Part shown: positions 1-56,044 of the stretch, one piece after another | How positions within the stretch are numbered: the stretch's first letter is position 1 | Layout: every line of letters starts with the position of its first letter | NCBI GenBank assembly: GCA_003614675.1 | Contig: ML002238.1 | Coordinates: 1 to 62,266 of the forward strand | Length of the DNA stretch: 62,266 bases | Direction of reading: 5' to 3' | From: Dimargaris cristalligena | Lineage: Eukaryota | Made by a program: the position numbers and the translations under genes | Notes under the pieces: model-generated | The model's database searches: none | What the model was told of the DNA's origin: nothing | Seen by the model: only the letters and a program-made list of their open reading frames with translations

Positions 1-294
1 TATATACCTTAGTAGTATCCCCTCAGTTGAAGGGACAAGTTAGTTTCAAGATAAACAAATAAATATCTGTTTTAACTTCACCAGATGATACCGACAATTA
101 CCTTCATGCAGTTTTACTTTGATTGTTATTATCACCAGTTCTATTTTACTTTATTAGTTTCATCTATTCAGTTCGAAGCTTTGGTATTTCAGAGTACCAA
201 ATTGATTATACTGTTTAAGCATAACATTTTCCTCATAATGTTTATTTATTTTTACTTTAACAACTGACAATGCAAGCCGACGACATACGACGCA

Positions 295-860
295 ATGGCT
301 GACCAGAACACCAGCAGCGACTTCCCTAAGGCCACCTCGGTCTCGACCCCCCCGAACCCAGCAAAGCCCAATGTTCCGTATTACATGACAAAATATGGTG
401 AGCCGTCAAGTGGAAAGAAACCGGAGATTCCCCCTCCTGCCGACTCTCCCAAAGGCGCACCAGCGGAGTCCCTCAAATCATTGGTAACACATTAGGCAAG
501 GGATATACAGTAGGCACACTTACTAGTCAGATACAAGGGCAGTGAGCATATATAGGGTTTATTAGAGTAAACTAGGGGGTATAAATAATCTAAAGGATTA
601 AACTGGTCCCAATGGGGCCCAGTTATATATATATAGGGACAACTCTAGAGGGAGGCCCCAGGGGAAGAATACTACTAAGGCTAAGGTATAGTAAAATAGG
701 CTAACTGGATGGCCATTATGATCTGGAAGACTCTGATGGTAACCAGAAGAGTCTTCAGATTAGTACTTAAGTGATTAGTGCAAAGAGATAAAGTCTGGAA
801 GGGGAAAGGTTATATGGTATAGGGTGATCCCATAATACTGGGGGTGACCATGGGAAGGTT
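295..860 (+). pseudogene. Degenerate ORF of unknown origin (Pro/Ser-rich N-terminus followed by many in-frame stops)
   Basis: ORF 295-495 (MADQNTSSDFPK...) is CpG-rich up to 465. The same frame continues with repeated TAG/TAA/TGA stops in TpA-rich, CpG-free sequence. No recognisable domain. Confidence 0.35.
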
Positions 861-861
861 A

Positions 862-1005
862 ATATGGAAGAAATTCAAACCAGCTGTATAAGGTTTTACA
901 TAATATGTGTGTGGGTGAATACATATGAGAATATCTTTTAACCAGTAATATTGGCCTCATCTAATGGATTTTTCATTATACAGCCTAAATGAACTTCTCC
1001 CATAT
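862..1005. mobile_element. 144-bp MITE-like element, copy 1
   Basis: Near-identical to 26167-26310 and 39590-39733. Imperfect ~30-bp terminal inverted repeats: ATATGGAAGAAATTCAAACCAGCTGTATAA versus the reverse complement of the right end, ATATGGGAGAAGTTCATTTAGGCTGTATAA (23/30 match). Non-coding. Confidence 0.85.
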
Positions 1006-1177
1006 GGCACTATAAGGCCTAATTGGGATAAACACTAAGGTGTCTGAATTAAGGTAGATTAAATAGTCCAACAGTCACTGACCAACTTTTATCACCTCAT
1101 TTTTTCTGTGGAAATCCACATTTCAATTTACATGACCATACCCCCTAACCTAACCTACCCCACTTGCCCTAATAGTT

Positions 1178-2441
1178 ATGTATACCCCCTCTCTAAAATG
1201 GATTACTCTGTCCCTGAGCTTAATGGTTGCAGCTAGTCAGGGGGCTTTAATCCAATCCCAGGGCAAGCCTATATCCCAATTAGCCAAGAGTGCATCACCC
1301 AAAGTAAGTAACCTGGTCCATTATCCAATCCTAACTACTTATCCCAATGCCCAGCTAGTTGAGATCCCTGGGTTTCAGATTAATTTAGATTGAAGCATCT
1401 TGACATCAGCTGTAATTAAATATTGATTTTAAACTCCTCAATTTCTATTATCCATTTTACTTGTACAGCTAGGCCATTGGACTGAGTCCAACCAACTGCA
1501 AGAAGCTAACTGAGCTGGCAAAGAAATTCCAGATTAGCATGGGTGACAACTTCAAGGACAACTAGGGTGATAACTCAGAGAGTAATCCAGTGGTCTATGA
1601 TACTGACTTACCTAAGAGTATCCTGGGGTGGATTAGCAATAACCTTACAACTCACACAATTATAGCTAATGCACCTTCTATTGACAACCAACCTAAGGCC
1701 TGGGCATTTGACTGGTGTCAACTAAATGATGACCAAAAGAGTCAAAAGTTCCCCCTCTTATGGTGTGCACCTTGGAAACTGGATGAAGCTCTGGCCTATG
1801 TCAAGGGTATCCAATGGCTGTGGGGTAGCAAAGGCATCAACTTGGTAGACTTCTAGGTCAAGGAATTAAGTGCCAGTGCCCCAAACATACAGCTGGACTT
1901 TGACACATTTAAGAAATACATTGAATAAACATTAGTCAATCAAGTATTTCTAGCCATCACCACCAACCCCAATAACAACACCATTTTGGAGGAGGTGCTA
2001 GACAAAATCTGGGACATGGTTGTTGACCAACAAGTCAGGACAGCTGTAATTCACCATATGTCTAAACCTCTTAAAACCACTTCTACCTTTGGGAAAGGGT
2101 GGTTAAAGGAGTCTCCTGATTTGCAACAACCAATAATAATATGCTGTGATACCCTTGGTTATAATAATGCCAGGCTGCGTCTGGATGAGCTTTCTAAGAG
2201 CACTCCAGATAAGGGCGAATTACACATGACAAAACCACTTGATGAAAAATCCTGCCACAGGATTCTAGGAATTGAGATGGGTGACATTTTGCCATTTACC
2301 AAAGCTCAAAAGTCGTTCACAGTGTGGCTAATTGACAACAAGGCAGTCCAGCCATCGACTGGAGGCTGGGCTTCAAACTTCAGAATGGTTACCAAAGACT
2401 GGACTTCAAAAATCAGCAGCTGGTTTACTAGTCACAGTTAA
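1178..2441 (+). pseudogene. Pseudogene of a secreted protein (two exons, three premature stops)
   Basis: Signal-peptide-like start MYTPSLKWITLSLSLMVAASQG. GTAAGT donor at 1304 and CTAG acceptor at 1472. Exon 2 (1473-2441) keeps one frame joining the 1590 and 1986 ORFs, broken only by TAG 1563, TAG 1854 and TAA 1926. Confidence 0.6.
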
Positions 2442-3449
2442 AGGCCAGTTGACAGGGCACACCCAGTGAGCACCTGCTTTGTTTTTTTAGTTTTATTTTA
2501 ATTTTTTAAAAAAAAGCTCTTGACATACAAGGCCGTTTAGTTATAGTAATAGTATGAGCACAGAACCACTGCTATGTAGTTAGCTGAGGGTTCAATATCA
2601 ACCAGCTGAGGTCCTGGGCTGCTTTATATGGTAGTATGTGTAATGCACATACCTACCAAAATATCCGATAGTTATTATCCTAGTAAACCACGCCAGCTAT
2701 TTATTGACATAGATATATTGGTGCGCTAATGATGCCAATGATACAAGAAAGAGGGACCAGAGCGAAGTGTATCTTTATAATACGGCCGGTGGGGGGGAGT
2801 ATATAGGATGATTGGAATACCCACAAGAGTCGGGATAGTTAATATTTAGCTAGCTAACTACTGGCAGTTATGGCCAAGGGGGAAGTCAAGCATTATTAGC
2901 CGACTTAGACCCACATGTCGCTAATAAGTACAGGGATAGGTGAATTAAGGAACATTATATTCATGCATAGACCTCCCTATTTGTCAGCAATCGCCGAGAT
3001 AGGCTTATACAGGAGGGTCACAGACTAAATTGGTTCAAGGTGTCAACCGCTGATGGACGAAGGCCTCCCCCATCTTGCTCTAAGGTGGTGGAGAGAGGAC
3101 TGCTTTTCCTGGTAGGTTTCAGCTAATACCACCGCCGCCCTATACTAACTAGTACCCCCCCTGCTATATCAATTTTGCTTGTGAAGAAGGGTCTCCGCTC
3201 TCTTAACTAGGACGCACTGGCTCGTGTTAAATTGATATCCCGGGCCAAGCTTAGCAAATTTAATAACGCCCATCGCCATCCTTTATCTTCCCAGCTGCTC
3301 TCCCCCTTTGGTTGCTGCTGCACTCTCCCCTTCTCACTACAGCCCGGTTTCATAACCCTCCTGACATTGCCACAACCTCCCCCTCATTCACTTCCCAAGT
3401 TCCCGATACTCGCTCATTCCCCCCTCGCCCTTTTATTCAGTCTCCCACC

Positions 3450-6039
3450 ATGTCCGCCACTTCGCTACTAGCTCGGCAGAGCCGGCCCTACGACATTGTC
3501 GGTAAGCAGCGAAGTCGCCCCTTTACTGGATTTGTATCTTTCGACTTAACAACCGCTTTTTTAGACCTCAGCGTTCTCGAATTAAACATGCCCTTGCCCC
3601 CTCCCAACTTACTCTATAACCTATATATATATTACTGTCCACACCCATTACCTCCCCCCATCCAGTTTGGGGCGCCACCGGCTTCACAGGAAAATACATT
3701 GCCGAATACCTTCTCCGCGAAGGGCCGCAGGTAAGGGGGATAAGCACAGACTAATTTTTGGTATTATCCAAGTTAAAATAGGCGAGCGTACGAAGTAGAG
3801 GGGGCTGCGGTGTTTGCTATTTTCGTTCGAATAGATTACACTGGAGGAGCCAGAAAGGCCGGTGTTCTGGGTATACTCCACCGTCCTTTGGAGCGCCTCC
3901 TCAGGCAAAACTCTACTCCACCCCACCGCCTGATGATCGGCGAGCTCTCCTTCCACAAGGCCATGGATTTAATATGCCACTCATATACCTTATCTTAAGG
4001 CGGGCTGTAATTCACCCCTGTATGTGTTTCCCCCAATAGAATCTCAAATTTGCCATCGCGGGCCGTAACAAGTCCAAGCTCATTGCCACTCAGGAGAGCC
4101 TTGGGGAATCCTACCCTAATGCCCTAAAGGTAATTTAATTCAAATGAAACGGACTTATCAAGAGGCCAGGTGGAGAAAATGCACATGGTGGTTTTATAAT
4201 AATACCATTTGAAGTTTAGTGGTACCGTGCTCTCTTACCGCTGACTGCCCTCGATTTCACTTAACCCAACAATTATGAGACACCTTTATCATCACTCACT
4301 CACTCTTATTACCCCTTCCCTTGGTGTACCCATCTGCAGCTGCCCCTCATCATCGCCGATAGTGCCAATGACGACCTGCTACAGGCCATGGCCAGGCAGA
4401 GCCGGGTGGTAATTTCCACGGTTGGCCCTTTCCTGCAGTACGGCGAGCCTTTGGTGCGCGCCTGTGCCCAGGAGGGGACTGACTACGTAGATATTACGGG
4501 CGAAGCCATCTGGGTGAAGCTGATGGCCGCCAAGTACCACGATTTGGCCGTACGAAACCAGGCTCTGATCGTTTCGTGTTGCGGCTTTGACTCCATTCCA
4601 TCCGACCTGGGCGTGTTCATGTAAGTAGCGACAATCTACACTAAGAAATCCGTTGTTACGGCATAAATTGGGGGTTGCATCATTACCATGAGCCCCGTGA
4701 TCATTTTCTCCTTGACAAACCTCCTAGACCCTTCTTACTTACCCCTTGGCTGAGAACCTTCCCCGCATGACATATCCCTTTACTCCCAACTGACCCGGCT
4801 ATGGTATACAATAGGGTCGTCGACTACATCAAGAAACGCTACGGCAAGGACACGGGTGCTGTGAAGGGGTCCATGGTTCAGCTTAAAGGTGGACTCAGCG
4901 GCGGCACCCTGGCCTCGGCCGTGGAGTCCATTTCTAATGGGGACAACCACATGAAACAGCTCGCCAGGATTTCGAAAGGTAAGTGACAATGTAGGTTATA
5001 ACCCCATGGTCAGCTCACCACCATTCAAATAGAGCAACTCGGCCGTATTATTTGAACCCATCCACCGACTTGCCTTCCCTTAACCAAGTAATATTACTTT
5101 ACCACTGCTCGGAATATTGGTAATATGCGATACACCTTTCTCTGCGAATCCCTGTAGATTCCAAGCCCAAACAACCCCGCCCTAAAAATATGCCCGGCGC
5201 TCCGTCCAAGTACCCTGTCTACTTTGACAACGACTTTGGTAAATGGCAGGGTTTCTTCTTCATGGCCCCTACCAACACGTCTGTTGTCCGATCTTCGAGC
5301 CATAACCGTAACTACGGACCTCTTTTCCGTTACGAGTAAGTCGACTCACTGCACAGTGTACACTGGCATCATTGTCCGCTATTTTGATATCGTATAGTAC
5401 GGCCCCCCCTGTTTCGATCTCCTTTGACATTCAACTAGCAATTTAGATTGTTATTTTAAAAGCCATTCTTTCGTCGGGCCACGGCTAACTCGCTTACTTA
5501 TTTTTATCTCACCCCCTCCTCAAAATTCATTTTATGTATGGCCAATTAGCGAGTCTTTGTCCTTTAAGAGTGCCTGGTCCTCGACCACGACGACCCTTGG
5601 TCTGATCTTTGCCTATTTCATGGTGAAGTTTTCGCCGACTCGCTGGCTATTGATGAAATTCCTACCTGCGCCGGGAGAAGGTCCCAGCCGGGCGGATATC
5701 GAAAAAGGGCACTTTACCCACCGCGTAGTGGGCCAGGCGGCCCCTGTTCCTACCTATTCGAACAACGCGAAGGCCACCGAGGACCCAAAACAGCCGAAGC
5801 AGGCCCCCGAAAGAGCTTACGCCGAGGTCGTGGGTACCAGCGACCCCGGGTATGGTGAAACAATCAAATATGTAGCCGAGTCGGCTCTGTGCCTCGCCTT
5901 CAATCGTGAACAGGTGGCTGCCGAAGGCGGTGTGCTGTCCCCCGCCGCCGCTATGGGTGAGGCGCTATTGACTCGGTTCCGTCAGAAGGGGATGCGCTTT
6001 ACGGTCAGCAATGAACCCTTCTTGAAAGCCAAGATATAA
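3450..6039 (+). CDS. Saccharopine dehydrogenase-like oxidoreductase (SCCPDH family), 7 exons
   Basis: Exons 3450-3501, 3666-3730, 4040-4129, 4340-4620, 4815-4978, 5158-5335 and 5550-6039 splice in frame with GT-AG. Motifs YDIVVWGATGFTG, AIAGRN, STVGPF..YGEP, DYVDITGE, CGFDSIPSDLG, SGGTLAS, PGEGPS, DPGYGET and GGVLSPA. Confidence 0.9.
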
Positions 6040-9622: not shown

Positions 9623-10883
9623 GATGGGCAATGAGAAACCATCGCGGTTAACTATGTATCAATTATCGAAATTTATATATATATATCGATATATATTATT
9701 TAATCTAGCCGTTCGTGGCTGACGACACTATTCATTTACATATCCATTATTTACCCAGTTCTATACTTATTTAGATTACCGAGCTTACTGGAATCCGTAT
9801 TGCTCTTATAATGTGAAGCTGACATGATTAGTTGGTGATACCCTGGAACCCTCCTGGATTACTTTTGCTTTTATCTTAAAATTATACGTTTTTACTCACG
9901 ACATTATTATTATATACACTCTTCAGCAGTTTGCTTAAGTTTTAAGTGTCGATTTCGATTTTGATTTTTCCACCAATTTTCTTTTTATTTATTTTTTTAC
10001 ATTATAAGAGTAAAAACTCCAAAAAAATAATAAAACCCCACGAACGGCATACCATTGTGAAGTATTATGATCCTCGAAACTGTGAGTAATCGGGGAATGG
10101 GGATCACGAAAAGGAACATATACATATATATATCGTGCTTTAATAGAGCCACAAAACAACTATAATTGTTTAAATTGGTATGGACTCTACCGCACAGGAT
10201 AATAATATAACAGTCCATGTAAATAGGGCGTACCGTAGGGTAGTGGCTAATATCCATCTACCAGCTATTATATATAAAAAACCATAAATCGCCCTTTCGA
10301 GTGGATTAATGGTAGATTTAGGACTAAAAGAGGTAGGCTAGAAGTGCCTTTCGAATCAGAACACTGCGTTTATAACACGGATAATTATTGTATACGTCGT
10401 TGAGAGTGCTAATTACCCCTGTCCCCCTTTAAATTTTCAATGGGAAAGTAGTGAACCCAAGTAACTTGGGGTTCTCCAGGCAATATGGGAAAAAGGATTG
10501 GGGCACCAGAGCCAATAGGACGAGGAGCCTTACAAGTGTAAACAAACCTTGCTGTACCCTCCACTAAAAGTCAACACATTGGCGAATGGGGAAGTGAAGA
10601 TCTACTCGCCTTATATGAAACCAACACTCCCTTAGACTTGCAGATTTTTAGAGCTATTGAACCCTTATTTCACCCCATTGTACTATCTTTTGCTTCCCTA
10701 TTTGACTTCCGACGCCCATTCACTTAGTCTTACGCTACATTTACCACCTGTCGCTCCACACGACACCAGTACTTTACTAGCTCACGTCCAACGGATTACC
10801 ACGGCCAACCCGTAAAATCACCCCGACAGCCAGTGCAGAGACTACCCACACCCCCATTGGCCAACGTATTACCAGTTTCCGCC

Positions 10884-25193: not shown

Positions 25194-26166
25194 AAAATAA
25201 AAAGGATACGCTGGAGGAGACCGCAGCCTGGCGGGGGGAATAACACTAGGTTAAGTATAAGGGGTTCGGAGGGAAATAACAGACTACGAGGGGTTGCCCT
25301 GTTTAGCCACGGGCAAAAGGACAGGTTGTATAGGAATAGGTAGATGGTGGTGGATTTGTACAAGGGCAGCCCAGTGCAGGGAATGGATGGCGAAGGAACT
25401 GCTGGACTCTAGAAGAGCGCGGCCAGACACGTCAATAACTGGTAGTGGGGTGTCCCTGTCAAAGGGCGCGGGATTACAAGGAGGTAAAGTGCGGTGTATA
25501 AATTGACTATTCAATAGAAAAAGGACTAAATAATAAGAGAAGGTAGAGAAGAAGGGATATATTGATTATAAAAGCGTAGTAGCTGAGGAGGGGGTATATT
25601 ATATGCGAAGCCTTCGGGAAGGAAAATAAGAGAAGGGAAGGTTGGTTGTATATATAGTGTGCTAGTAATAGTAATATTAGTATAGTGGTTGTATGCAGTT
25701 CAATTGGTGGACTGAGAGCAGTACACAGCAGCTATATGCGCATTGGTGATCATATCAAATCGCAGCAGCTAATGGCTGAGAAGACCGGGAATAAGGCGTA
25801 TTCTATAATAGAGACGGTTGGTTGGCGGATGGGCGTAGTTCCCAAGTCAATCGGCAAATATACAACAGTACGGAGAGAGAAAGAAATAGGGCAAGGAAAA
25901 GAATGGCTGGCACTCTTGTACACAACCTGGGCCAGGGCGCCCTGGGCTTTATATACCGGCGCCGTAGGCCAATGGTGCGTGGCTCCACTACCAGGGGGGC
26001 GCTACCCACTGGATCTCTCTGGCCCATCACACTCTTTCTTGCATACGCCAATCGGCAAATACTCCCCGAATATGGGGAGATAATAAATAGTACAGACTAT
26101 TTCCCACCGGTTCTCCGTCTCACTCCCTCGCAACACCAAACGGGACTATAAGAAATACTGTGCTCT

Positions 26167-26310
26167 ATATGGGTGAAATTCAAACCAGCTGTATAAGGTT
26201 TTACATAATACATGTATGGTTGAATATATGTGAGAATAGCTTTTAACCAGTAATATTGGCCGCATCCAATGGATTTTTCATTATACAGCCTGAATGAACT
26301 TCTCCCATAT
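26167..26310. mobile_element. 144-bp MITE-like element, copy 2
   Basis: Same length and nearly the same sequence as copies 1 and 3. ATATGG...CCATAT ends; unrelated flanks. Confidence 0.85.
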
Positions 26311-32696: not shown

Positions 32697-32698
<2 letters not shown>

Positions 32699-32741
<43 letters not shown>

Positions 32742-32742
32742 A
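32699..32742. repeat. (TA)n(TG)n microsatellite
   Basis: Directly visible dinucleotide run. Confidence 0.9.
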
Positions 32743-35010
32743 TGGGAGAGGATCAGACGAGCAATAATAACAATGGGGCGGCGAAGGCCAAGAGAGTGGG
32801 GGAATTATTCATTTTTTATTATCGATACCCAGAGGATTTCCCCCCACCCATTCCTCCTATAACCAGTTTGATTTCCGATGACTTCAATGTGGCGGTCATT
32901 ATACCCAACCTCCCTCTCTACAAGCCGTTAACCCAGACTTCCAACCAGAATTCCAGGACTGGCGAGCCTATCCCCTTTTCCTCACCACCCTTTTGTCACT
33001 AATCTTCTTGGTGGGGGGGGGGGCAATGGGTACAATCGAAAGGCAACTCCCCCTTCCGCCTTGTCCACCACCACCCCTCATCCCCCATCGTGATTGGATC
33101 ATGCCCCATTTATGGGGGTTTCCTGAGTGGGGCAAATCGAGGGGGAGGGGGAGTAGCTCGATAATCGCCGGCTATACGCTCTTCCGGTGCGCCACGGGTG
33201 TATACAGTTGGGAGAAAGGGCGGCGACCGGTGGCATGCCTACTGGCAATTGGTATTATTAGCCCAAGGAAATGTATGCTGGTAAATGCGGATTATCTGGG
33301 ATAGGAGGGGTTTGTTCGTCACCATTGACTCACCTGCATTCAACGAGTGTTGCTAAGGACGGCATACTCCAGTGCATTGCACCTGTTGGTCATTAAACCT
33401 GGACCAATTTCATTGTCGAGCATCCTTCGATTTTCGACTGGTCACCAGCTCCTCCCAATCCCGGTAAAAAAGCAAGGCGGGGGAAGTAAAAAGTGCGAAA
33501 TGGGATGTTTGTCCAGCACCTCTAAGACGGGCTGTGTGGATACGTGTAGAGGGGAGAGAGGGATGGTGATATGCCTTGCGCTTGGTCTTGGGCAATCGGG
33601 GCCCCTTCTAGATGGGTTCCACAACACACAACGGTTCCTTAAACGGACGTGGTCGCTACGAAAAATCACATACGGAGTCCAGCTGTCGAAGCGATTGGAT
33701 GGCATTGACGCCTGTGAAAAGCAGTGCATACAACTCGGCTCTCGTTAATGTACAATAAATGGGAAGAAGACGAGTGAGAGGTGAGCGTATCGAGAAGGGA
33801 AGAGCAGCTTATCCCCCCCCCCTCCCAAATTGCGGGATGGTGTGGTGATGATATGCTCATGCATACAATAATATATGCGTCAATGTGCTGGTCCTTTCCA
33901 TGTCGCCTTAGTTGGCTGGGTGTCATCTTCCGTATTTAAAGGCGGGGTCTGCCTCCCTTAGCTGGTTCTTTTCTGCTTGCTCCTGTTGTGTATCCAAACC
34001 ATTCAATTCCCTTTCTATACCACCACCTTCCTCCCTTATTTGATCACCGCTCCTAATCATCGATTCGAATAGGCGCGTTTACTAGCATATTGTAAGTATT
34101 CGGCCGACCGCTATACCATTGGGTTTATCACTGTGGAGTGCCATTGTCCTCCCATTTTAGCTTCCTTTGACTTGTGCTGGTTACACGACCGCCTTGGACT
34201 GCAGTACTTTGGAAGTGCTCCCGCCCCCGGCTACCATCAGCAAGTCGCCACCCTGGTGCAACTTAGCGCATTTATTCCCCCTTCCGCCACATTTGCCCAC
34301 TCGACAGGAGTCAAATTTCGGAGTGACTGCCCTCCTTACTCTTCTATTGCTTTATACTGACTAACCACTGTTACCTTATGGTCGGTGTTATATTCCTCTA
34401 GTCTGTCCTACTCTTCCTGGTTGTAGGTGACACTCGCTAGCCAGCGGCGGACCAGCCAAGCTCGGGGTCTCCACACCGCTTACTCGCCCAACTGCTATTA
34501 CCCCTCTCTTGTGCTCCTCCTTTTCACCTCCTGAGCCTTTACTGCTGTACTTGGAACTATACTTTAGGTTTCTCCTGCTTCGCTCTATTATCGCCACCTG
34601 AATTTTCTTATCACTAAGTTTCCTCCTACCTTCTGTGGTGTCTCACATCCCTTTCCCTTGACTTCCCATTCCCACTCGCCTTTTGGTCTAGTCGCTTAAC
34701 CCCTTCCGCCACCGCCTTCCCCCTCTTTTATTTATTTAGCGTGACTACACCCTCCCCGCATTTGTACCCTCTTCCATTTCAGTACCATTTCCTACACACC
34801 TGCCAATTGCTTCGTTTCAGTGGGGTGCTATACCCAAACCTCCCTCCGTTCCCCTGGCTTCCCCACCCCGTTATGCCCCTTTAGTTATTGTCAATCCGAC
34901 TACATAACCTCCCCCTTCCCTCTTCTTCACTGCTGTTGTTTGCCCTTCCTTAGGTCATTCTCATTTCTTTCTCTTACTTCCATTTTTCTTTTTAGCAAGG
35001 CCTATTCACC

Positions 35011-38830: not shown

Positions 38831-40905
38831 TTAGAGAATGGTAAATCCCTTCTTTTTGGCGACGGGTTGATTGGTCCACGGGTCGATCACCACTCTCGGC
38901 TGCCTCACTTTGAACCACCAAAAGAGGAAAACCGCCAGACCGAATCCGATGACCACGAAGACTGACACTAGAATAATGGTGGTCTTATGACCCTCGTCGT
39001 CCGTTGGCTTGGGGTCTTTAACGAACCGGTAGAGAGAATAGTCGCGGGCGTCTTCGGGGATTTTCATAGCGGCCCGGAGGTCTAGGGCGTCGAGAGACTG
39101 GTAGTTGTTGCTGCCATCATCATCATTGTCGTTACCGGCACTACTTTCCAACTCAAGCGCAAAAAAGTCCTGGCTGGGGTGGCCATCCTCGGTACGGCCG
39201 AAACTAATGAGGACTACTCGGCCCAGTAAATAGGCCGAATGGCTATAACGAGCCGCTAAATTCGCCGGTAGGTTCGTGGTGGGGGCGGTATCCCACTGCC
39301 AAGGCATTTGGGTAGTGTCCAGAGTGAGAATATTCGATACGAGAGAGCCGTCATTGTAGAGACCGCCAATAAAGATGATCTTACGGCGGTACACTAAACA
39401 CCCCGAAACACGGATCAAAGGGAGGAAGTTATAATCATAGCATGCCAAATCCGAGTCAATCGAAGGTGTTCCATGAATTATGGAAGTGACGGTAACGTAC
39501 AAAAAATGATAATCGGTTAGTTCAATGAAATAGATATTGCGAAATGGGCGGGATGAACCACGTAAGAGCAGCAACAGCCGAATTCAAAAATATGGAAGAG
39601 ATTCAAACCAGCTGTATAAGGTTTTACATAATACGTGTATGGACGAATATATGTAAGAATATCTTTTAACCAGTAATATTGGCCTCATCCAATGGATTTT
39701 TCGTTATACAGCCTAAATGAACTTCTCCCATATTTTGTGCCGAAATTAATCTATCTCTCTCTATTCGGAGATTTACCCTGAATGGATTCAACCACTGGTT
39801 AGTGCGTAGCCCCCCCCTCTTCCCTGCTTTCCATTCCTTCTTTTTCCAACAGATGCAGCCTTTAAAGGTAATGGCCGGATTGGATATTGTCTACTAACCG
39901 ACGTTGGCGAGGAATATAACGGGAACTCGGAGGGATAGGGATAGTATAATATTTGAAAAACTTACCGACAGCAGCGGTTGAATAGATGGAGCCGAACGTG
40001 GCACCACTTGTAGGCACGAGTGACCAGGTCTTCTCTACCGTATCCAGAACGTGTACAAGCTCGACATCAATCGGGCCCTTCAGAGAATTCCCCCCAACCA
40101 CGGCCATATGGGTACCATTGATCATGACCGCTGTGTGCAAAAACCGGGATGATGGCGTGTTGTCTTGGTGGTCTAGAGTGAATTGGCTACCATCCACCAT
40201 TTTGTAGTAGGTCGTACTTTGGGTTTGGATGATGGATTGCCCCTGGCTCCCACTGTCGCTGTTGCTGTCACTGTTGCTCGAGTTGGTATCGTTACGGCTG
40301 GCGATGATAGTGCTAGTCATGAATTGGCGATAGGCTACGGGGTCCACCCCCCCGAAATAAACCGTATAGCCCGTCGCCCCCGAGTTAACCCCCGACTGAC
40401 CGTACCACCGGCCCAGACGACTTACTTTGAGGGTGCGTCGGCTCCACACGGGTCGATTGAGTTCCATGTATGCGTAAAAATCGGTCCGCTGCAGTTCCGT
40501 TTCGGGCCCGTCCCCCCCGTAGGCGGTCAGGAACCCGCTGTCGGTGTCGGTGGTATTAAGGACCACGGCCCCGCATACCTGCGGGTAATTCACCGCCGGG
40601 TCGGTAGGGGTCCAAGTGGGGAAGCTGATGTTCGTCAGATTGGTGAGGGATAGGGTCCACATGCGGTTGGAGAAGGCCTCGGGGGCGTTGGTGGCTCCGC
40701 CGTCCTCCGTAGTGGGGGGAACTTGCGTGCGCCCCCCAATAATAAAGAGCGTATCCTGGCGGACTAGGGAACCGTGTTCATAGAGAGCTGGAATTGTGTC
40801 GGCACTTTGGCCCTCGTCGCTCCCCGAAATCACATTGACATATCCATTAAGGAGAATGGCCCCCCAGAGGAATGGTAACCAGCTGAGTGAACTAAAAGTC
40901 CGCAT
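38831..40905 (-). CDS. Kelch-repeat type-I membrane protein, 2 exons
   Basis: Exons 40905-39966 and 39393-38831 join as AAV-V-YRRKIIFIGG. Signal peptide, kelch motifs (LFIIGG, YFGG, RFLHTAV...VVGG, RYSHSA...ISFG) and TM helix IILVSVFVVIGFGLAVFLFWWF. Confidence 0.82.
39590..39733. mobile_element. 144-bp MITE-like element, copy 3 (inside the kelch gene intron)
   Basis: Same element as copies 1 and 2, lying within intron 39394-39965. It retains CpGs lost in the other copies. Confidence 0.85.
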
Positions 40906-45536: not shown

Positions 45537-46500
45537 TGGTAAGAAGGTGCGGAATGGGGTGTGGGAGGATGGGTGGGAAAGGGATAAGTAGGCAATGCGT
45601 GCGAAGAAACAAGGCAATGGAATTAAGCTATTGCGTAGTGGGTAGTACAACAATGAGGTGATAGACTGAAAGGTAGGGGAGCTGTTCCATATATATATAT
45701 ATATACATATTAATAAACATACCCATTTCAAGGCCCAGCGGGTATAATATTATTGTCGCTATCGGCGGGAATAACTCCTTCGCCCGCCGCCCATTCTCTT
45801 GATTGTTGACTCAGCGCCTATACAAATCTGCGGGTATTAGACAGGTGAATACACTTGGGCGCGCCTATTTTTAGCAGCGAATCACTCCCCCCAAGACAAG
45901 GCAAGGTGGATATTGGACAGTATACCGCACCCCCCCTACTGTAGTTGCCAAAGTCCCCTGTAATAATCCTTTCATTTGCTCCTTTCTGACTCATATCGAT
46001 GGAGTGCCCTTCGTCGTTAAATGCGAGGCCCTCTTGCCTGGCTTGATGATCCGATAAGGTCAGCGTGTATCGCTGATTGGAGCCTCGTACGAACAATGGA
46101 GGTACTGCCAGACCCCCATCATTAAGTCAATCACTGACGTAGCCGGGTTGTATAGTCATTGCTTCGTCCCATTCGGAGGGGGGAAAGGGTGCAATATCCA
46201 CGTGTATAGGGGAATAAGGGATGTAATTTATAACAGTATTTATATGTTGAGATATTTATAGTTCAGATAAAGAGGTGGGAATCTGCTAAATCAATTAAAA
46301 GTAAATCACCTAGATTGGCTACCAAAGTAGAGCGAAGGAAGAGAAGGAGCCGCAATCCCCGTTTGGCTTAAATGCCACAGCGAATCATTCTACTGACTCC
46401 CTTCACCGCCCAACAATTAGGCTACGAACTAATCCAAAACGAATGCCTAGTTAATATTCGTTTTTACCCAATTGGTACCTAGCACTGGTCCGAAGCAAGT

Positions 46501-48726
46501 CTAGTCTTCCAGCTCCATGATAATGTCGTCGGCTCCGACCGTATCGTTAGCCGCCACATGGATAGTCTTGACCTTACCGGCCTTGGGGGCCCGCAGCACA
46601 TTCTGCATCTTCATCGCTTCCACCACCACCAGTTCCTCACCCTCGGCGATCACGTCGCCCTCCTTGACGTTCAAGCTTACCACACGACCAGGCATGGGGG
46701 AAAGGACCACCTTGCTCAAGTCCAGGGGCGCCTTCTCCTTCATGAACCGTTGCAGTTGGCTCTGGGTTTCGGACAAAATGGAGAGGTCAAAGTGGGTACC
46801 GTAGTGCTGGAGACGCATGCCCAGAGGTAAAGTGCTGAGGTACTGCAGGGTAATTTCGGCAGGGACGGCAATTTCGGGGGACGCCACGTCCAGGAAACGC
46901 AGCCGGATGAGGGGGGATTCAATAGCCCATTCGACGGCGACCCGCTGGGGCGTACCACCATTGATGGAGACGGTGAACTGGTTGGTGGCATTGTAGACGA
47001 AAACGTCGCCTTGGAGGGCCACGTGAATGGAGGCCTCGGTGGTTTGGGCCGATTCGCCTTCCGTCGTGGCCGAAGTAGGACGGCGCACCAGGGCGGACCA
47101 TTCACGCAGGGCGGGGTAGTAGGTCAACTCACCGGGACCGGTCCGGTGGTCTTCCCGATCCAGGGTGGCATTACGGATCTGGCGGATAGCATGCACGACA
47201 GCGGCACCGGTCGCCAGTTCGTTCCAGGTGGCGGCAGTGAGGCGGTGGCCGCGGAACCCATTGGGGTAGTGTTCGGCCAAGAAGTTGGTGGTCAAGGCCC
47301 CGGCCTGGAAGTCGGGTTGATCCAGCACATCCCGGAGTAGGGGGATATTGTGGGTGACCCCTTGGATCACGTAGTTGTCCAGGGCCCACTTCATGTTGGC
47401 GATGGCCTCGGTACGGTTGAGTCCGTAGGAGCACAGCTTGCTGATCATCGGATCGTAGTGGATACTGATTTCGCTACCCTCCACAATACCCGAGTCGCAC
47501 CGAATTTCGTTCAAGGGGGTCTGGGAGCGGGGTTCCTGGTACTTGCGCAGGGTACCGATACTGGGGAGGTACTTCTCGGGGTCTTCGGCGTAGACGCGGG
47601 ACTCGATGGCCCAACCCTTGAGGGGCACTTCGGGTTGGGTGAGTTTCAGGGGGCGGCCGGCGGCCACGCGGATCATTTCTTCGACCAGATCAATACCGGT
47701 GATATATTCCGTGATGGGGTGTTCGACCTGCAGACGGGTGTTCATTTCCAGGAAATAGAAGTTGCGGTGGGCATCCACCAGGAATTCCACGGTACCGGCC
47801 GAGGAGTAATTCACGCCCTTGGCCAGCGATACCGCCTGTTCGCCCATAGCCTTACGGGTAGCCGGGTCCAGTTTGGTGCTGGGTGCCTCTTCGATCACCT
47901 TCTGGTTCCGGCGCTGGATCGAGCACTCCCGCTCGGGCAGGTACAGGGTGTTTCCATGCTTGTCGGCTAGAATCTGGATTTCAATGTGGCGGGGCTCTTC
48001 GATGAACTTTTCAATCAGCAGACGGCTGTCCCCGAAACTGGACTGGGACTCGGTGGAGGCCAACTTGAAACCATCAATGACTTCCTGATCGTTGTGAGCG
48101 ATCCGCATACCCTTACCACCGCCACCGGCGGAGGCTTTGATCATGACAGGGTATCCAATGTCACGGGAGATTTCTAGGGCGTGATCAGTATCACGCACGA
48201 CACCGTTGAAACCCGGGATGATGTTGACACCGGCCTGGCCGGCGATGATTTTACTCTGGATCTTATCACCCATGGCGGCCATGGCCTCCACCCCGGGGCC
48301 GATGAATGTAGCACCGGCCTTTTCCAGGGCCCCGACGAAGGCGGCGTTTTCGGACAGGAAGCCGTAGCCGGGGTGGACGGCCTGGGCACCGGTATCCTTA
48401 ACGGCCTGGATGATGCGATCCATGTTGAGGTAGCTCTGACTGGTAGGGGCGGGGCCCACGTTGACGGCCTCGTCGGCCATCTGCACATGGAGGCTGTTGA
48501 CATCGGCGTCGGAGTAAATGGCCACGGTCTTGATACCCAGCTTCTTAGCGGTGCGCATCACGCGGCAGGCAATTTCACCCCGGTTGGCCACCAGGATTTT
48601 GTTGAAGTACTGTTCGGCATAGCTGGAGGAGACATGGAAGGAACGGCGGGTAGAGTGGCGGGTGGTCCAAGTGGCCCGGAGGGGCGACAGGCGGGCGGTC
48701 GCTCGGAAGGACTGGACAAGCAGCAT
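46501..48726 (-). CDS. PCCA: Propionyl-CoA carboxylase alpha subunit, mitochondrial, intronless
   Basis: Presequence, biotin carboxylase domain (KILVANRGEIACR, HPGYGFLSEN, IKASAGGGGKGMR, ERECSIQRRNQKV, FLEMNTRLQVEHP, ISIHYDPMISKL) and biotinyl domain (SPMPG, EAMKMQN). The adjacent beta subunit is of the PCC type. Confidence 0.9.
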   Translation of the reverse strand: MLLVQSFRATARLSPLRATWTTRHSTRRSFHVSSSYAEQYFNKILVANRGEIACRVMRTAKKLGIKTVAIYSDADVNSLHVQMADEAVNVGPAPTSQSYLNMDRIIQAVKDTGAQAVHPGYGFLSENAAFVGALEKAGATFIGPGVEAMAAMGDKIQSKIIAGQAGVNIIPGFNGVVRDTDHALEISRDIGYPVMIKASAGGGGKGMRIAHNDQEVIDGFKLASTESQSSFGDSRLLIEKFIEEPRHIEIQILADKHGNTLYLPERECSIQRRNQKVIEEAPSTKLDPATRKAMGEQAVSLAKGVNYSSAGTVEFLVDAHRNFYFLEMNTRLQVEHPITEYITGIDLVEEMIRVAAGRPLKLTQPEVPLKGWAIESRVYAEDPEKYLPSIGTLRKYQEPRSQTPLNEIRCDSGIVEGSEISIHYDPMISKLCSYGLNRTEAIANMKWALDNYVIQGVTHNIPLLRDVLDQPDFQAGALTTNFLAEHYPNGFRGHRLTAATWNELATGAAVVHAIRQIRNATLDREDHRTGPGELTYYPALREWSALVRRPTSATTEGESAQTTEASIHVALQGDVFVYNATNQFTVSINGGTPQRVAVEWAIESPLIRLRFLDVASPEIAVPAEITLQYLSTLPLGMRLQHYGTHFDLSILSETQSQLQRFMKEKAPLDLSKVVLSPMPGRVVSLNVKEGDVIAEGEELVVVEAMKMQNVLRAPKAGKVKTIHVAANDTVGADDIIMELED

Positions 48727-49518
48727 CACGACAGGCGGACCTTGGGGCTAGTCAGGACGAGTGGGAAATGGGTTGGGGCAGGGGAGTAAGCTGTGGTAGA
48801 GGATAAGGAAAAGGAGGTGGAGCTGGCCACGAGACGAGGGAATGTATGAGTAAGAAGTAGAGGTGGAAATGGGAGAGAAGGGGAGAAGAGTCGCTAGAAA
48901 AGGGGTGGTGGGACGGGGGTTTGGCCGTTGGGAGGGCAAGTCACGCGAGGAATAAAATAGATAGAAAGGGCCGCTTGGGCTGGAAAGGGACAGTCACTTC
49001 AGTCAAACACACGCCGACTGGATAATACAGCTTTGTTGGTGCATTTAATTGGGCGTATTCCCGTTGCCACTGCTCAATAAATGATCAAGGAACTCAGCTG
49101 GTTAGTCCGCAGGGTGGGCGATTAGATAAAATGCGCATATACCTCCGAATCCAATGGGGCGCATTTATCCACAACATCAGAGTAAAGGGATGGGAATAAT
49201 CTACGAGGTCTTTGGCACACCTTGTGACTGGCATTACAGAGAAGCCCAGCCCCATTGGCTTGTGGCTATCTATCGCGCTCCCCAGGCCTACCGTAATACC
49301 AATAGTCACGGTGGGAACGTGGTAGAAGGGAGGTGTATGTCGGCCCCAGTAGTAGTCCTCCAGCCTCCTTAGTCAGTGACCGTGCTTGCCCAACCTACTC
49401 AAGTCCCCTCTCTCCTCCATTTGCGCTTCACCTTTATTCTTCAGTTATTAAGTTTACCTTCCATCCCCCGACATCTCCTCTCACCAACTACCCCACTGGC
49501 CGTCCTTTGCCCACCACC
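48727..49518. promoter_or_regulatory. Putative bidirectional promoter shared by PCCA and PCCB
   Basis: 792 bp between divergent ATGs. Purine-rich on + near PCCA (a pyrimidine-rich leader on -) and pyrimidine-rich on + near PCCB. Confidence 0.55.
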
Positions 49519-51520
49519 ATGGCCCACCTCCGCGCCCTGCGTATGGGGCTTACCCGCCGCACCGAGACCGCCCTCCCCCGCCTGCTGACCCAGCAAGTGC
49601 CCCGCTCCCTCAGTTTAGCCCGGCCCTACTCCATGCAGGCCCTGAAAACTAACGTAAGCTAGCCGTCCCTACCAGCATTGCCCTCCTAACCTAACCTCGC
49701 AAGGCACATATATATGCAGACAGGTGTTGGTTCTGGCCGACTGGCTCCACACTAAAGGACGCCTTAGGCTCGCTATTATTTGTCCATTTATAAAACCATC
49801 TGCCCCGACTATTTTGTATCCTAAATATCTATGCTTCTCGGAATATCACCAACAGCCTGTGGCCCAGAAGATTGAGGCTAAACGCCAGGCCGCCAAGTTA
49901 GGAGGCGGAGAAAAGCGAATCGATGCCCAACACAATAAGGTAGGAAGCGGATACGCAAACCAACGTTCGTGCAGATAATCTAATAATCCTGATCCCCCCG
50001 CCCCGCTAGCTTTGAATACTAATTAGCATAATTAAACCGCTCCCCAATCCTTTTGATATTGGACCCCTTGCTCTTTTCTCCGCCATTAGGGTAAGCTCAC
50101 CGCCCGCGAGCGAGTTGAACTCCTCGTCGACCCCGGCACCTTCCGGGAGTACGATGCTTTTGTCGAGCACCAGTGCGAAGATTTCGGTATGCAGAACACG
50201 GTTATCACGGGCGACGGGGTGGTGACGGGTCACGGCAAAGTCAACGGCCGGACCGTCTACATTTTCAGCCAGGACTTCACCACCTTCGGTGGCAGTTTGT
50301 CCCGTACCCACGCCGCCAAGATTTGTAAAATCATGGACAAGGCCATGCTGGTAGGGGCCCCCGTGATTGGTCTCAATGACTCCGGCGGTGCCCGGATCCA
50401 GGAGGGGGTCGATTCACTGGCCGGCTATGCCGATATTTTCCAGCGCAACGTGCTGGCCTCAGGGGTGGTGCCCCAAATCTCCCTTATCATGGGCCCCTGC
50501 GCGGGTGGAGCGGTCTACTCTCCCGCTCTGACGGACTTTACCTTCATGGTACGTGATACTTCGTACCTGTTTGTCACGGGCCCGGATGTAGTCAAGACCG
50601 TCACCAATGAAAGTGTTACCCAGGAAGAACTTGGAGGAAGCAAGGCCCATACCGCCAAGTCCGGGGTGGCCCATCAGGCCTTCGATAATGATATTGAGGC
50701 CCTCGCCCGTCTCCGCGACTTCATCGACTTCCTGCCCTTGTCGAACCAAGAACCGTCCCCGCGGCGCCATACCGACGACTCTGCCACCCGTGGTGACGAA
50801 GCCCTCGACACGATTGTGCCCGCCGATTCCACCAAGGCCTACGACATGAAGGACGTAGCCTCCCGTCTGGTGGATGACGGTAATTTCTTCGAGATCATGC
50901 CCGACTACGCCAAAAACATCATCGTCGGGTTCGCCCGTCTTGATGGCCAGACTGTCGGTGTGGTGGGTAACCAGCCGTTAGTGTCCTCCGGTGTCCTGGA
51001 TATCAATGCCTCCGTCAAGGCCGCCCGGTTCGTCCGTTTCTGCGATGCCTTCAACATCCCGCTGCTCACCCTGGTCGATGTTCCCGGCTTCCTACCCGGC
51101 ACGGCCCAGGAGCACAACGGCATCATCCGCCATGGCGCCAAACTTCTCTACGCTTACGCCGAGGCGACCGTACCCAAGCTCACCGTGATCACCCGCAAGG
51201 CTTACGGCGGTGCCTACGACGTGATGAGTTCCAAACACCTGCGGGGCGACGTTAACTACGCCTGGCCGACCGCCGAAATTGCCGTCATGGGCGCCAAGGG
51301 GGCGGTGGAAATCATTTTCCGCAACCAGGCCAACATCGAGGAGCGAGTGAAGGAGTATACTGATAAGTTCGCCAACCCCTTACCCGCTGCTAAACGTGGC
51401 TTCTTGGACGACATCATCCTCCCCAGTGTTACTCGTAGCCGTCTGATTGAGGACTTGGCCATTTTGGCGACCAAAAAGCTGAGCAATCCCCCCAAGAAGC
51501 ACGGTAATATCCCGCTTTAG
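49519..51520 (+). CDS. PCCB: Propionyl-CoA carboxylase beta subunit, mitochondrial, 3 exons, 549 aa
   Basis: Exons 49519-49653, 49856-49939 and 50090-51520. Motifs [64 protein letters not shown] and the PCCB-type C-terminus KKHGNIPL. Confidence 0.95.
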
Positions 51521-53009: not shown

Positions 53010-55971
53010 TTCGGACTTATCGACTATCTCTACCTAGACTACGTATTACCTACATGCTTTCTGGCGCCCTATTGTAGCCCGAATCCAGGGGTAAATCTGC
53101 TGGTATCTCCCGAATTTGACCATTGGGCGGATGGATACCTTCCTCATCCCATACCCTGTCCTAGAATATTTTTACACGTACCCCCTGAGCCGCCTGAAAT
53201 GGGCGGTTTTGACACTCATTGGTATCTATTTAAATAAAATTCATTGAATTTAGAACACTTGGTTTGCTGAATTAGCAACATACCATTGGTAGATAGAGAG
53301 CAGCGGATTTGGCGTGATGGTGGTTCCAATGAGATGGAGATGAGAGGGAGTATGTGGGACTAAAACCCACCATGAGCACCATCTACCTCCCCCCCTCGCT
53401 TTGGGCGTCCATTAATGTCACAAATATACAGATTAAATCACCAATGAATCATTCAGGTTTTTGCTTCTCTAGTGTAAACCATGTCGAATATAATGATCAA
53501 AGCCTAGTAATCGCCCCCGCCCGCAATACAACAACTTATCTATAGGACATTCGTTGACAATCCCTCTTTATAACCGCATTCTTGCATCCTAGTTATCACA
53601 CTAATATTAGCTCGCCAACAAATTAAATATATATATAGCTGTAGATGTGCCTATGGATCATAGCTGGGATTAGCGCTGCTGCTTTCTATACCTAAGGCTC
53701 GTTAATCTTGAAAGAGATTCCTCCCCTAAAGACAAACGGCTGGAACAATACCTTATTGTGACGGGAATTGTTGGGCGGCATCGTTTGGAGAGAGGGAGGG
53801 AGGGAATGTTTTATTTTATCTCACGTCGTTCTGATAAGACCATTGTCGACGAGCCTGTGATAAATTTGCCTCGGCTATGCAATGAATATCCTGCTTATCG
53901 GGGCGGGGTTTTCTGTTTGAACACCCAATCCGACGAACTTTCCCATTGCCGTTTTGTTTAAAATCCGGCATACAGCAATGCTAAACATCGCTTATCAGAG
54001 ACAGTACTACTGAAGGCGGTGGCGGGATTTAGCCATGTAATAGACCCACCCATTGGATAGGAGGAAGGTGGGTAATGTACACTAGTAAGCAAGTATTATC
54101 GAATCCAAAAATGAGTGGGAGGGAGGATGCAAGCCGAATTCATCATGGCACAGCTGACTGCAACCGGTATAAATATTAGGGAAACAGCGCTAAGCGGTTG
54201 GGGGGGACTAGACTAGTATCCAGCGAGGAGGATAAAGGAGCCAAATGAGAAGGAAGGGGTGTTTAATAGCTGTGCAGAACAATCAATGGGGAACCGTTAT
54301 CTGCACCGGCATGCATGAGTGATTCTCTAACCATCCCGAACTCACCCTTGCCTCGACCTTCTCCCCTCATCTCCTCCTCCCCAGTCTCGCTCCTAAAAGT
54401 TGCGTTTTGATAGACTTTCGGACATGGCACCGGTTTTGGACTACTGCTTTCTGTAGGACCGGATTTGTGGCGACGGCCTCCTTTTCGGTAATTCGAATTT
54501 TGAATCCCGGCCATCACCGCATTAGAAAACAATGATATAGCCCACCAATAAGCCCAGTACGAGGGTAGACGATGGGGCTGGGATTTGGGGCAAAGATATA
54601 CCTGCTCTACAGCCTCGATGGGGGGCATCGCACCCTACAGATTATCCGTGGCGATGCAATAGACCGCCACCGCGCAGGCTTCACAGATTTGGGCAAATAA
54701 TCTGCGTTGGAGTCGCAATCCCCGCTGTAGAGTATGGTGAGGAAGAGAACCGCATTTCTGCAAGACATAATTTCTCGGTCACTGGACCCTCCTCCCTCCC
54801 TCTCCCACTTCCATTCGAGAGCCCCACCCGGCCAGAGTAAGTGGCTAAGCAAAAATGAGGTTAAGGAACCCTGATAGAAACAAGGGATAACTCAACTAGG
54901 GCACAGGTCGAAATATAAATAGTACGGCTCATATAGGCCGTTTTTATAGGGACATCTGATCATTGCTGAAATTCGACGACCAATTAACGTAGGGTGGTTT
55001 TTGCTTCGGTGGATCGACCGCCGTTCCCATTCGAACGTTCTTAGCAGGGGGTGTCTATCCCCACATTGTCCGAGGAAGTCCTCAGGACCCGTTCCAAAAA
55101 AAAAAGGATGGGAGGAGGGCGAAAACGGAAGCGAAGCCAGAGCCGTGGCGCTCACTTGGACGAGCACTTTACTCGAGCGCTAAAGCGGAAGGAGGGGGCT
55201 GACGAACCGGCAGCGAAAGAGAGGAAGGAGAGGGAGAGGTCAATAGAATAGGACGATCCCGGCGGGCTTTCCGACTACTTAATAAACAGCGGGTCGCCTA
55301 TTGCTTCATTTAATCGAACTACCGAGCAGTACTATTTATCGGGCCTACCGCCTACTGTTATCCCATCAAAAGATATAGTCTCCTCTTCCCTTCTTCCCCC
55401 CCTCTCTCTCTTTATCCTACTTTCTTTAGGCTTCTTGGCCCATTCATCCCGTTTAGCATTTCAGTGAACCTGGCTCGCTAGTTTATCATTGCCTAACTGA
55501 CCTTAGCTCTACTCTCGTTTATCGCACCTAAGTTGTTTATCCTGCTGTGACCTCCGCGTCATTCCCTTACCCTCTAACTGTATTGTTCCGCACAACTCGA
55601 CTTCGACCCCGTACACCATTACCACGGTCCCCGCTCCGTCGCATTTTCCCTCTCTACGTGTCTGTGTATGCGTGTGTGTGTGTACACCAAAAGTATATAA
55701 ACTCCGCCCCCTTGCCCCCCTTAGCATACACTCGCTCCGGCTGTGTAACTCGCTCATAACCACTAAAACTCCGCCCTGAACCCACCACCTCGTCGCTACT
55801 GTGGTCTTTTTCTACTCTGTGGCTCATCTCCACCAACTCTGGGTGTATATTCTGTCCCTACTCCCTGTGCTCTATTTTCCCCTTAGTCCCACCTGGCGCC
55901 GTTCGGACCCGGTCTTTTCCGTCCTATATTTACATTCCAATATTTATATTTATCGACCCTGTTTTATCAGG

Positions 55972-55973
<2 letters not shown>

Positions 55974-56002
<29 letters not shown>
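55974..56002. repeat. (AT)n microsatellite upstream of the septin ATG
   Basis: Directly visible dinucleotide run. Confidence 0.85.
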
Positions 56003-56007
<5 letters not shown>

Positions 56008-56044
56008 ACAAGAACCCTTTTCTTCTCCGAACCCTGTCTACAGC

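Follow-up and report, generated by a model that had tools for sequence, protein, structure and literature searches.

A CpG-free tract beside a repeat cluster in Dimargaris cristalligena as the probable scar of a local CpG-methylated domain

A tract without CpG at a repeat-filled contig end

The left end of a contig of the fungus Dimargaris cristalligena (assembly GCA_003614675.1, contig ML002238.1) carries a tract of 1713 bp (positions 465-2177, GC 0.406) in which the dinucleotide CG is absent throughout. The window, that is, the whole stretch of DNA analysed, comprises 62,266 nt (positions 1 to 62,266, forward strand), and the contig beyond its left end is gene-dense and CpG-normal. The tract takes in a mosaic of short repeats and also a pseudogene for a putative secreted protein, of which it covers the promoter and the greater part. 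It is probably the scar of a local CpG-methylated domain that decayed through 5-methylcytosine (5mC), rather than the product of classical repeat-induced point mutation (RIP). An earlier note on this DNA had proposed a repeat-targeted C-to-T process acting on CpG and possibly on CpA. The process is CpG-specific and linked to repeats, positions 1-1050 being repetitive. However, the CpA part of the proposal is not borne out (CpA observed/expected ratio (o/e) 1.15), and repeats are only one part of the affected DNA, because over half of the tract (~1051-2177) is single copy except for 207 bp.

The CGs that bound the tract lie at 464-465 and 2178-2179, leaving a gap of 1714 bp, whereas the second-longest CG gap within the window is 216 bp. 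The whole window contains 3285 CGs (CpG o/e 0.89). In the tract, ~71 CGs are expected by base composition and ~62 by the CpG density of GC-matched low-GC DNA of the window; the Poisson probability of zero against ~62 is ~1e-27. The earlier claim of a CpG-free stretch at 466-2177 is thus borne out. It had also been considered that tracts of this size might be common in single-copy DNA, which is not what the window shows: all of the 573 other 1713-bp windows of the contig contain at least 49 CGs. An excess of CC and GG is found window-wide (o/e 1.25-1.28) and is stronger in the tract (1.50 and 1.68).

The two edges of the tract differ. The left edge is sharp, with 13 CGs in the flank at 268-464 (CpG o/e 0.87). 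By position it falls inside the open reading frame (ORF) that starts at 295, as noted earlier, but this ORF is itself the truncated N-terminus of a gag-like gene, and the edge coincides with the break point of this multi-copy fragment. The right edge is a gradient (2178-3300), with 7 CGs at 2178-2700 (o/e 0.31), 19 CGs at 2701-3300 (0.60) and ~0.9 beyond. This recovery of CpG extends over ~1.1 kb through unique DNA, ahead of a saccharopine-dehydrogenase-like gene that begins at ~3450. The tract itself consists of two parts, a repeat mosaic with a nested miniature inverted-repeat transposable element (MITE) at 493-1050 and mostly single-copy DNA at ~1051-2177.

Contigs of four DNA runs from two studies were aligned to positions 1-4500 at at least 80% likeness. 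At this threshold ~1051-2177 is single copy except for 1185-1391 (207 bp), which is ~82% like one paralog contig. One contig of run X1 spans 976-4500 and is identical to the window, and a contig of run X5 spans 977-4500 with six differences and one gap. In runs X2 and X3 the exact coverage of the unique stretch is divided among several pieces, and those of X2 leave short gaps. The tract is therefore old and stable as judged from the X5 contig, which differs at only these six sites and one gap. Two of the five X5 differences listed in 1051-4500 are at CpG sites (2357 and 4150), which read CG in the window and CA or TG in X5; at site 2357 the paralog contig likewise has A. An assembly chimera was rejected for the unique part, as contigs of several runs cover 976-4500, and so was a foreign or host-derived origin, the homologs being confined to the same lineage.

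CpG-specific decay of a secreted-protein pseudogene

The single-copy part of the tract holds a two-exon gene on the forward strand. Exon 1 (1178-1303) begins MYTPSLKWITLSLSLMVAASQG, which is signal-peptide-like by eye, the intron (1304-1472, GTAAGT...CTAG) is supported by the deposited model P0005 and by the alignment to a paralog, and exon 2 (1473-2441) ends in the natural stop at 2439-2441. The 1095-nt frame contains three in-frame stops in exon 2 (TAG at 1563-1565, TAG at 1854-1856 and TAA at 1926-1928) and no frameshift; the earlier report of three stops without a frameshift is thus real. The promoter and most of the gene lie inside the CpG-free tract, and the pseudogene has only four CpGs (2178, 2216, 2314 and 2356), all within the 264 nt at its 3' end. 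The deposited 128-aa model P0005 corresponds to this pseudogene. It shares the first intron, skips the stop at 1563 by means of a second intron and ends at the stop at 1854. Since the invented intron bypasses the first stop and the model ends at the second, the gene structure identifies the annotated protein as an artefact that comes from modelling a disrupted gene.

D. cristalligena has a paralog of this gene (P0003/P0004, 44% and 38% identity) that is not visibly inactivated, and two more distant homologs (P0006 and P0007) were found. Among 1.84 billion representatives, a profile search returned four proteins only, the window's own model included. No Pfam match was obtained for the pseudogene, its paralog or one distant homolog, and a Foldseek comparison of the paralog's AlphaFold model, which is poor (mean pLDDT 55, all-helical), with the PDB gave no match at E<=0.001. 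By these searches the family is an orphan restricted to its lineage, with a secreted nature predicted by eye.

Each of the three stops had been described as one C-to-T step from CAG or CAA. Such steps are possible by sequence, but the homologs have other residues at these positions. At the 1854 stop the three intact homologs all have Trp (TGG to TAG, a G-to-A change), at the 1926 stop they have Lys, Lys and Thr rather than Gln, and the 1563 stop falls within an insert relative to the homologs. The stops therefore fail to document changes from CAG/CAA to TAG/TAA.

The decay is instead recorded in the codons, for which eight genes of the window, across 8663-57538, served as the reference. These genes have a GC content at third codon positions (GC3) of 0.60-0.76 and a CpG o/e of 0.89-1.09, which, with the o/e of 0.87 at 268-464, confirms that the flanks and genes are CpG-normal. 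Their CpG density of 82 per kb predicts ~89 CpGs in a gene of 1095 nt, compared with the four observed. Of the 354 Arg codons in the reference genes, 344 (97%) are CGN, while the pseudogene has five Arg codons, namely four AGR and one CGT in the CpG-retaining 3' end. The nine Arg residues of the paralog are all replaced in the pseudogene, where they read Gln, Ser, Trp, Asn, Gln, Thr, Asn, His and His. In the three columns in which two intact homologs have Arg in common, the pseudogene has Gln, Trp and His. These are the products of CGN to CAN and of CGG to TGG changes, and the pattern therefore reflects a loss of Arg and not its primary absence.

The other codon families show the same signature. 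The share of NCG within the NCN families (Ala, Pro, Thr and Ser) is 18-28% in the genes and zero in the CpG-free part of the pseudogene, whereas the share of NCA rises from 5-8% to 20-32%. At codon boundaries, third-position C ahead of a codon that starts with G drops from 0.38 in the genes to 0.00 in the pseudogene, with an increase of T from 0.18 to 0.40. When the next codon starts with A, C or T, the pseudogene has third-position C at 0.34-0.36 vs. 0.37-0.47 in the genes. The tract as a whole has a TpG o/e of 1.16 and a CpA o/e of 1.15, compared with 1.02 and 0.94 in GC-matched DNA. Thus, CpG has changed to TpG and CpA on both strands, and other cytosines are largely spared. The CpG signature is thus seen in Arg codons, in NCG and NCA shares and at codon boundaries. 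The amino-acid asymmetry relative to the paralog (36 changes explainable only by G to A or C to T, and 23 only by the reverse) is no more than suggestive. If the ancestral codon usage was like that of the other genes, CpG cytosines are estimated to have changed at least ~15-20 times faster than other third-position cytosines. A rate ratio of ~15-20 or more is within the known range for methylated CpG in animals.

Repeats at the contig end and the MITE family

The repeat block extends over positions 1-1075. The numbers of matching contigs in the four runs are 856, 1469, 1635 and 2663, nearly all within 1-1050, and the summed contig depth is 1e3 to 2.5e5 over 1-1050, compared with ~200 from 1051 on. 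The leftmost element, R1 (1-489, forward strand), is a fragment of a multi-copy element with an AT-rich 5' part (1-294) followed by the gag-like ORF (ATG at 295), in which homology ends at ~483-489. Positions 1-455/489 of R1 are matched by many contigs of the four runs at 80-99%. The ORF is 88% identical, over its full length, to a partial protein of 394 aa from the same species that extends past the stop of the window ORF and bears a CX2CX4HX4C knuckle, for which the Pfam zf-CCHC match is weak (E 0.0035, 17.8 bits, cut-off 20.8). Because this homolog continues past the stop and carries the knuckle, the ORF is, by alignment, a multi-copy gag-like gene cut down to its N-terminal part, which breaks off at the CpG-free mosaic. 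No pol domain was seen.

The second element, R2 (~493-866 and 1006 to ~1075), is a mosaic, recognised by depth, loose ends and joints, in which short elements of very high copy number are combined, and it is interrupted by the MITE. Copies of R2 elsewhere begin at 493-498 after unrelated sequence, and the loose ends there mark the left end of R2. Other copies lack the MITE (joint 861>1002) or various internal blocks. Positions 429-617 are bridged by no exact contig among those listed, and the join between R1 and R2 depends on the assembly alone. An Rfam scan of 1-3500 gave no match, and a blastn search with 1-3300 against the remaining window found two MITE copies only.

Variants between repeat copies were classed for the best-supported 40 of 357 variant sites, to which the following counts refer. 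In R1 (1-464), 10 of the 18 listed variants involve an exchange between CpG and TpG or CpA, whereas CpG positions make up only about one tenth of this stretch. Eight of the ten are CpG elsewhere and TpG or CpA in the window, and two are the opposite. At 465-1050 only one of the 17 listed variants is at a CpG site (site 906). Among the lost CpG sites that could be polarised, one of nine has a 5' T, which is a small sample. The non-CpG changes from G:C to A:T in the repeat part occur, in our reading of the listed variants, in CpA/TpG and in CpT/ApG contexts at roughly equal frequency.

The MITE is ~140-145 bp long, with terminal inverted repeats ATATGGRAGAARTTCA, and is present in three copies on the forward strand of the window. 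Copy 1 (861-1005) is nested in R2, and copies 2 (26166-26310, 91%) and 3 (39589-39733, 93%) lie in CpG-normal surroundings. The family is short and non-coding, its terminal inverted repeats are visible in the alignment, and besides the three window copies it is found in very many contigs. The one clear consensus CpG of the MITE, at 906-907, reads TG in copy 1 and CA in copy 2 and is retained in copy 3; site 906 is C in most other copies. The sequence details reported earlier are correct, in that TAATATG of copy 1 corresponds to TAATACG of copy 3, and copy 1 carries CATCTAAT in place of the CATCCAAT of the other copies. The summed contig depth on the MITE is ~1e5 to 2.5e5 vs. ~200 in unique DNA, for which reason it is probably among the most abundant repeats of the D. 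cristalligena genome. Copy 3 sits between two tandem kelch-repeat genes.

As 10 of the 18 listed R1 variants are at CpG sites and the MITE CpG is lost in two of the three window copies, CpG hypermutability, as read from these copies, reaches repeats beyond the tract. R1 looks like a younger element, part-way along the same path of CpG loss.

Origin of the tract

The loss is confined to CpG, yields TpG and CpA and largely spares non-CpG cytosines, as in the decay of 5mC, which we infer to be its probable cause. A domain of CpG methylation would have nucleated on the nested cluster of short repeats at the contig end and spread over ~1-2 kb of the unique DNA beside it, reaching across the promoter and the larger part of the secreted-protein gene. 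Methylated CpGs would then have changed to TpG and CpA far faster than other sites until all were gone. The gene, silenced or weakly constrained, would have lost all CGN Arg codons in this process, and the three stops would have been acquired later. This methylation reading agrees with the rightward gradient and with the age-graded state seen in R1. Methylation of this kind is reported in other fungi. In Rhizophagus irregularis, which is outside Dikarya, CG methylation is described as concentrated on transposons, with a DNMT1-related enzyme, and in basidiomycete repeats an excess of CpG transitions has been ascribed to 5mC deamination. Closer to Dimargaris, the Kickxellomycotina Coemansia and Linderina are reported to carry CDCA7F, and CDCA7 is described as occurring nearly always alongside DNMT1.

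Several points weigh against local CpG methylation. A recent review describes early-diverging fungi as almost free of 5mC and reliant on N6-methyladenine (6mA), without mention of Zoopagomycota. The gag-like repeat next door is near-normal (o/e 0.87), so that repeats are not uniformly erased. The erasure of all ~60-100 CpGs demands, by estimate, a CpG rate at least 15-20 times that of other cytosines, and the frame has no frameshift despite the total loss, which fits a fast process or a decay while the gene was functional. Finally, since only one of the 17 listed variants at 465-1050 restores a CpG, this part may be CpG-poor as a trait of the repeat family rather than through decay in place.

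A total erasure without frameshifts would be better explained by an active, CpG-specific hypermutation resembling RIP, in which a repeat-triggered enzyme, either a DNA methyltransferase with deaminase activity or a deaminase specialised for this task, would have erased the CpGs of the repeat cluster in one or a few bursts, leaked over 1-2 kb and killed the gene collaterally. All CpGs are gone, and yet the 1095-nt frame has acquired only three stops. The loss begins at the repeat block and fades with distance, as would be expected of such leakage, and CpG sites dominate the copy differences of the neighbouring repeat. There are also reported parallels, namely TpCpG targets in Pucciniomycotina (PMC3318451) and RIP-index signals in Entomophthorales, which likewise belong to Zoopagomycota (10.1101/2023.09.13.557621). 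However, slow 5mC decay yields the pattern equally well, and nothing in it demands a mutator. Single-copy DNA makes up over half of the tract, the intact paralog shows no visible inactivation, and a 5' base preference is lacking (one of nine polarised lost CpGs with a 5' T). We regard such a mutator as unlikely, though it is the main rival of the methylation reading. Slightly less likely again is the specific proposal that D. cristalligena has a repeat-nucleated system that hits every CpG, rather than CpA or TpCpG, leaks over more than 1 kb and can erase the CpGs of a gene free of frameshifts. A CpG-specific hypermutation system, if true, would be the first such in Zoopagomycota.

The tract might also never have been CpG-rich, being foreign or compartment DNA or consisting of intrinsically CpG-avoiding families, possibly joined to the contig by the assembly at its repeat-filled end. 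The repeat copies of 493-1050 are indeed rarely CpG where the window has TpG or CpA (1 of 17 listed), the paralog is Arg-poor as well (2.7% vs. 6.1% in the window genes), and the join at 429-617 is without an exact bridging contig among those listed. However, 976-4500 is contiguous and identical in X1 and differs at six sites and one gap in X5, and homologs of the gene come only from the same species or lineage. One distant homolog has 5.3% Arg, the conserved Arg columns have become Gln, Trp and His in the pseudogene, and the fading gradient on the right runs through unique DNA. A primary poverty in CpG is improbable in view of these observations, which contradict it for the unique part.

Classical RIP of the Neurospora type, which changes CpA to TpA in duplicated DNA, can hardly account for the tract, for although TpA/ApT is 1.05 there vs. 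0.90 in the rest of the window, a few changes are in CpA context (CATCCAAT to CATCTAAT in the MITE, CCA to CTA at 646) and the TGG to TAG change at 1854 is CpA to TpA on the opposite strand, the value of 1.05 is within the range of other windows (0.57-1.21), (CpA+TpG)/(ApC+GpT) is raised at 1.26, third-position C outside CpG is nearly unchanged, the non-CpG changes listed for the repeat part have no clear CpA preference and the pseudogene part, although it may once have been duplicated, is single copy at at least 80% likeness apart from 1185-1391. The RIP indices, whose calculation the earlier note had suggested and which were run in the window, thus leave RIP proper unsupported, with a composite index of 1.05-1.26 = -0.21 and a raised CpA (o/e 1.15).

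The local methylation reading, if correct, means that D. cristalligena methylates, or once methylated, the CpGs of its repeats and that the loss of a lineage-specific secreted-protein gene was collateral, for which the tract is a strong hint of a sequence-only kind. A CpG-erased domain in a genome of otherwise CpG-rich genes bears on 5mC in early-diverging fungi, which have been described as almost 5mC-free. The first 3.3 kb of the contig offer a precise locus for testing 5mC in Dimargaritales, and the changes of CGN Arg codons to Gln, Trp or His codons and of NCG to NCA provide a signature with which the rest of the genome can be scanned.

Comparison with known systems

The organism is an early-diverging fungus, as had been supposed, D. 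cristalligena being a mycoparasite that belongs to the Zoopagomycota and not an ascomycete. The tract most resembles in kind the 5mC decay of transposon-rich, CG-methylated regions of fungi (repeats of Agaricomycotina, CG-methylated transposons of Rhizophagus irregularis), which is likewise CpG-specific, shows a gain of TpG and CpA, is tied to repeats and leaves the bulk genome and genes unaffected. In contrast to the cases described there, the erasure in Dimargaris is total over 1.7 kb, includes a unique gene and is known from sequence alone.

RIP can spill over into neighbouring unique DNA. The tract shares with RIP of Neurospora crassa and other Ascomycota a repeat-associated change from G:C to A:T, premature stops without frameshifts and a possible spill-over of this kind. 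However, the target in Dimargaris is CpG and not CpA, the RIP indices do not reach RIP values, the tract is mostly single copy and the organism is outside Dikarya. The TpCpG hypermutation reported in Pucciniomycotina (Horns et al. 2012, PMC3318451) is similar in that C changes to T at a CpG-containing target in fungal repeats, whereas the CpGs of Dimargaris are lost whatever the 5' base (a 5' T at one of nine listed polarised sites). In Entomophthorales, which belong to the same phylum, the question of a repeat-directed C-to-T change outside Dikarya likewise arises, and RIP-like signals were proposed there with caveats (10.1101/2023.09.13.557621). The index of that report is a composite of the TpA/ApT type; the corresponding index is negative in Dimargaris, and the signature is CpG-specific.

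Full-text literature searches returned no paper that deals with cytosine methylation of Dimargaris or of Dimargaritales as a whole. Even so, the novelty claimed in the earlier note was overstated, as CG methylation in Rhizophagus and RIP-index signals in Entomophthorales are already in published reports. CpG decay at methylated repeats and the silencing or decay of flanking genes are known; what is new is the lineage, together with an erasure that is complete.

The rest of the contig

The genes of the contig include those for a saccharopine-dehydrogenase-like protein, a peptidase M28, DNA polymerase epsilon, a DUF1206 protein, a PP2C, two kelch proteins, a 2-hydroxyacid dehydrogenase, both propionyl-CoA carboxylase subunits and a septin. 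As the coding DNA is strongly CpG-rich, its composition speaks against CpG methylation of the bulk genome in the germ line.

The closest proteins of other species to the propionyl-CoA carboxylase beta subunit (50090-51520) are those of Dispira and Dimargaris xerosporica, at 91-92%. The genes for the alpha subunit (46501-48747, reverse strand) and the beta subunit (forward strand) are arranged head to head with ~1.3 kb between them, and by virtue of this arrangement they may share a divergent promoter. Microsatellites of the (TA)n/(TG)n type are found in AT-rich intergenic spacers at 9675-9714, 32698-32745, 45689-45728 and 55969-56020.

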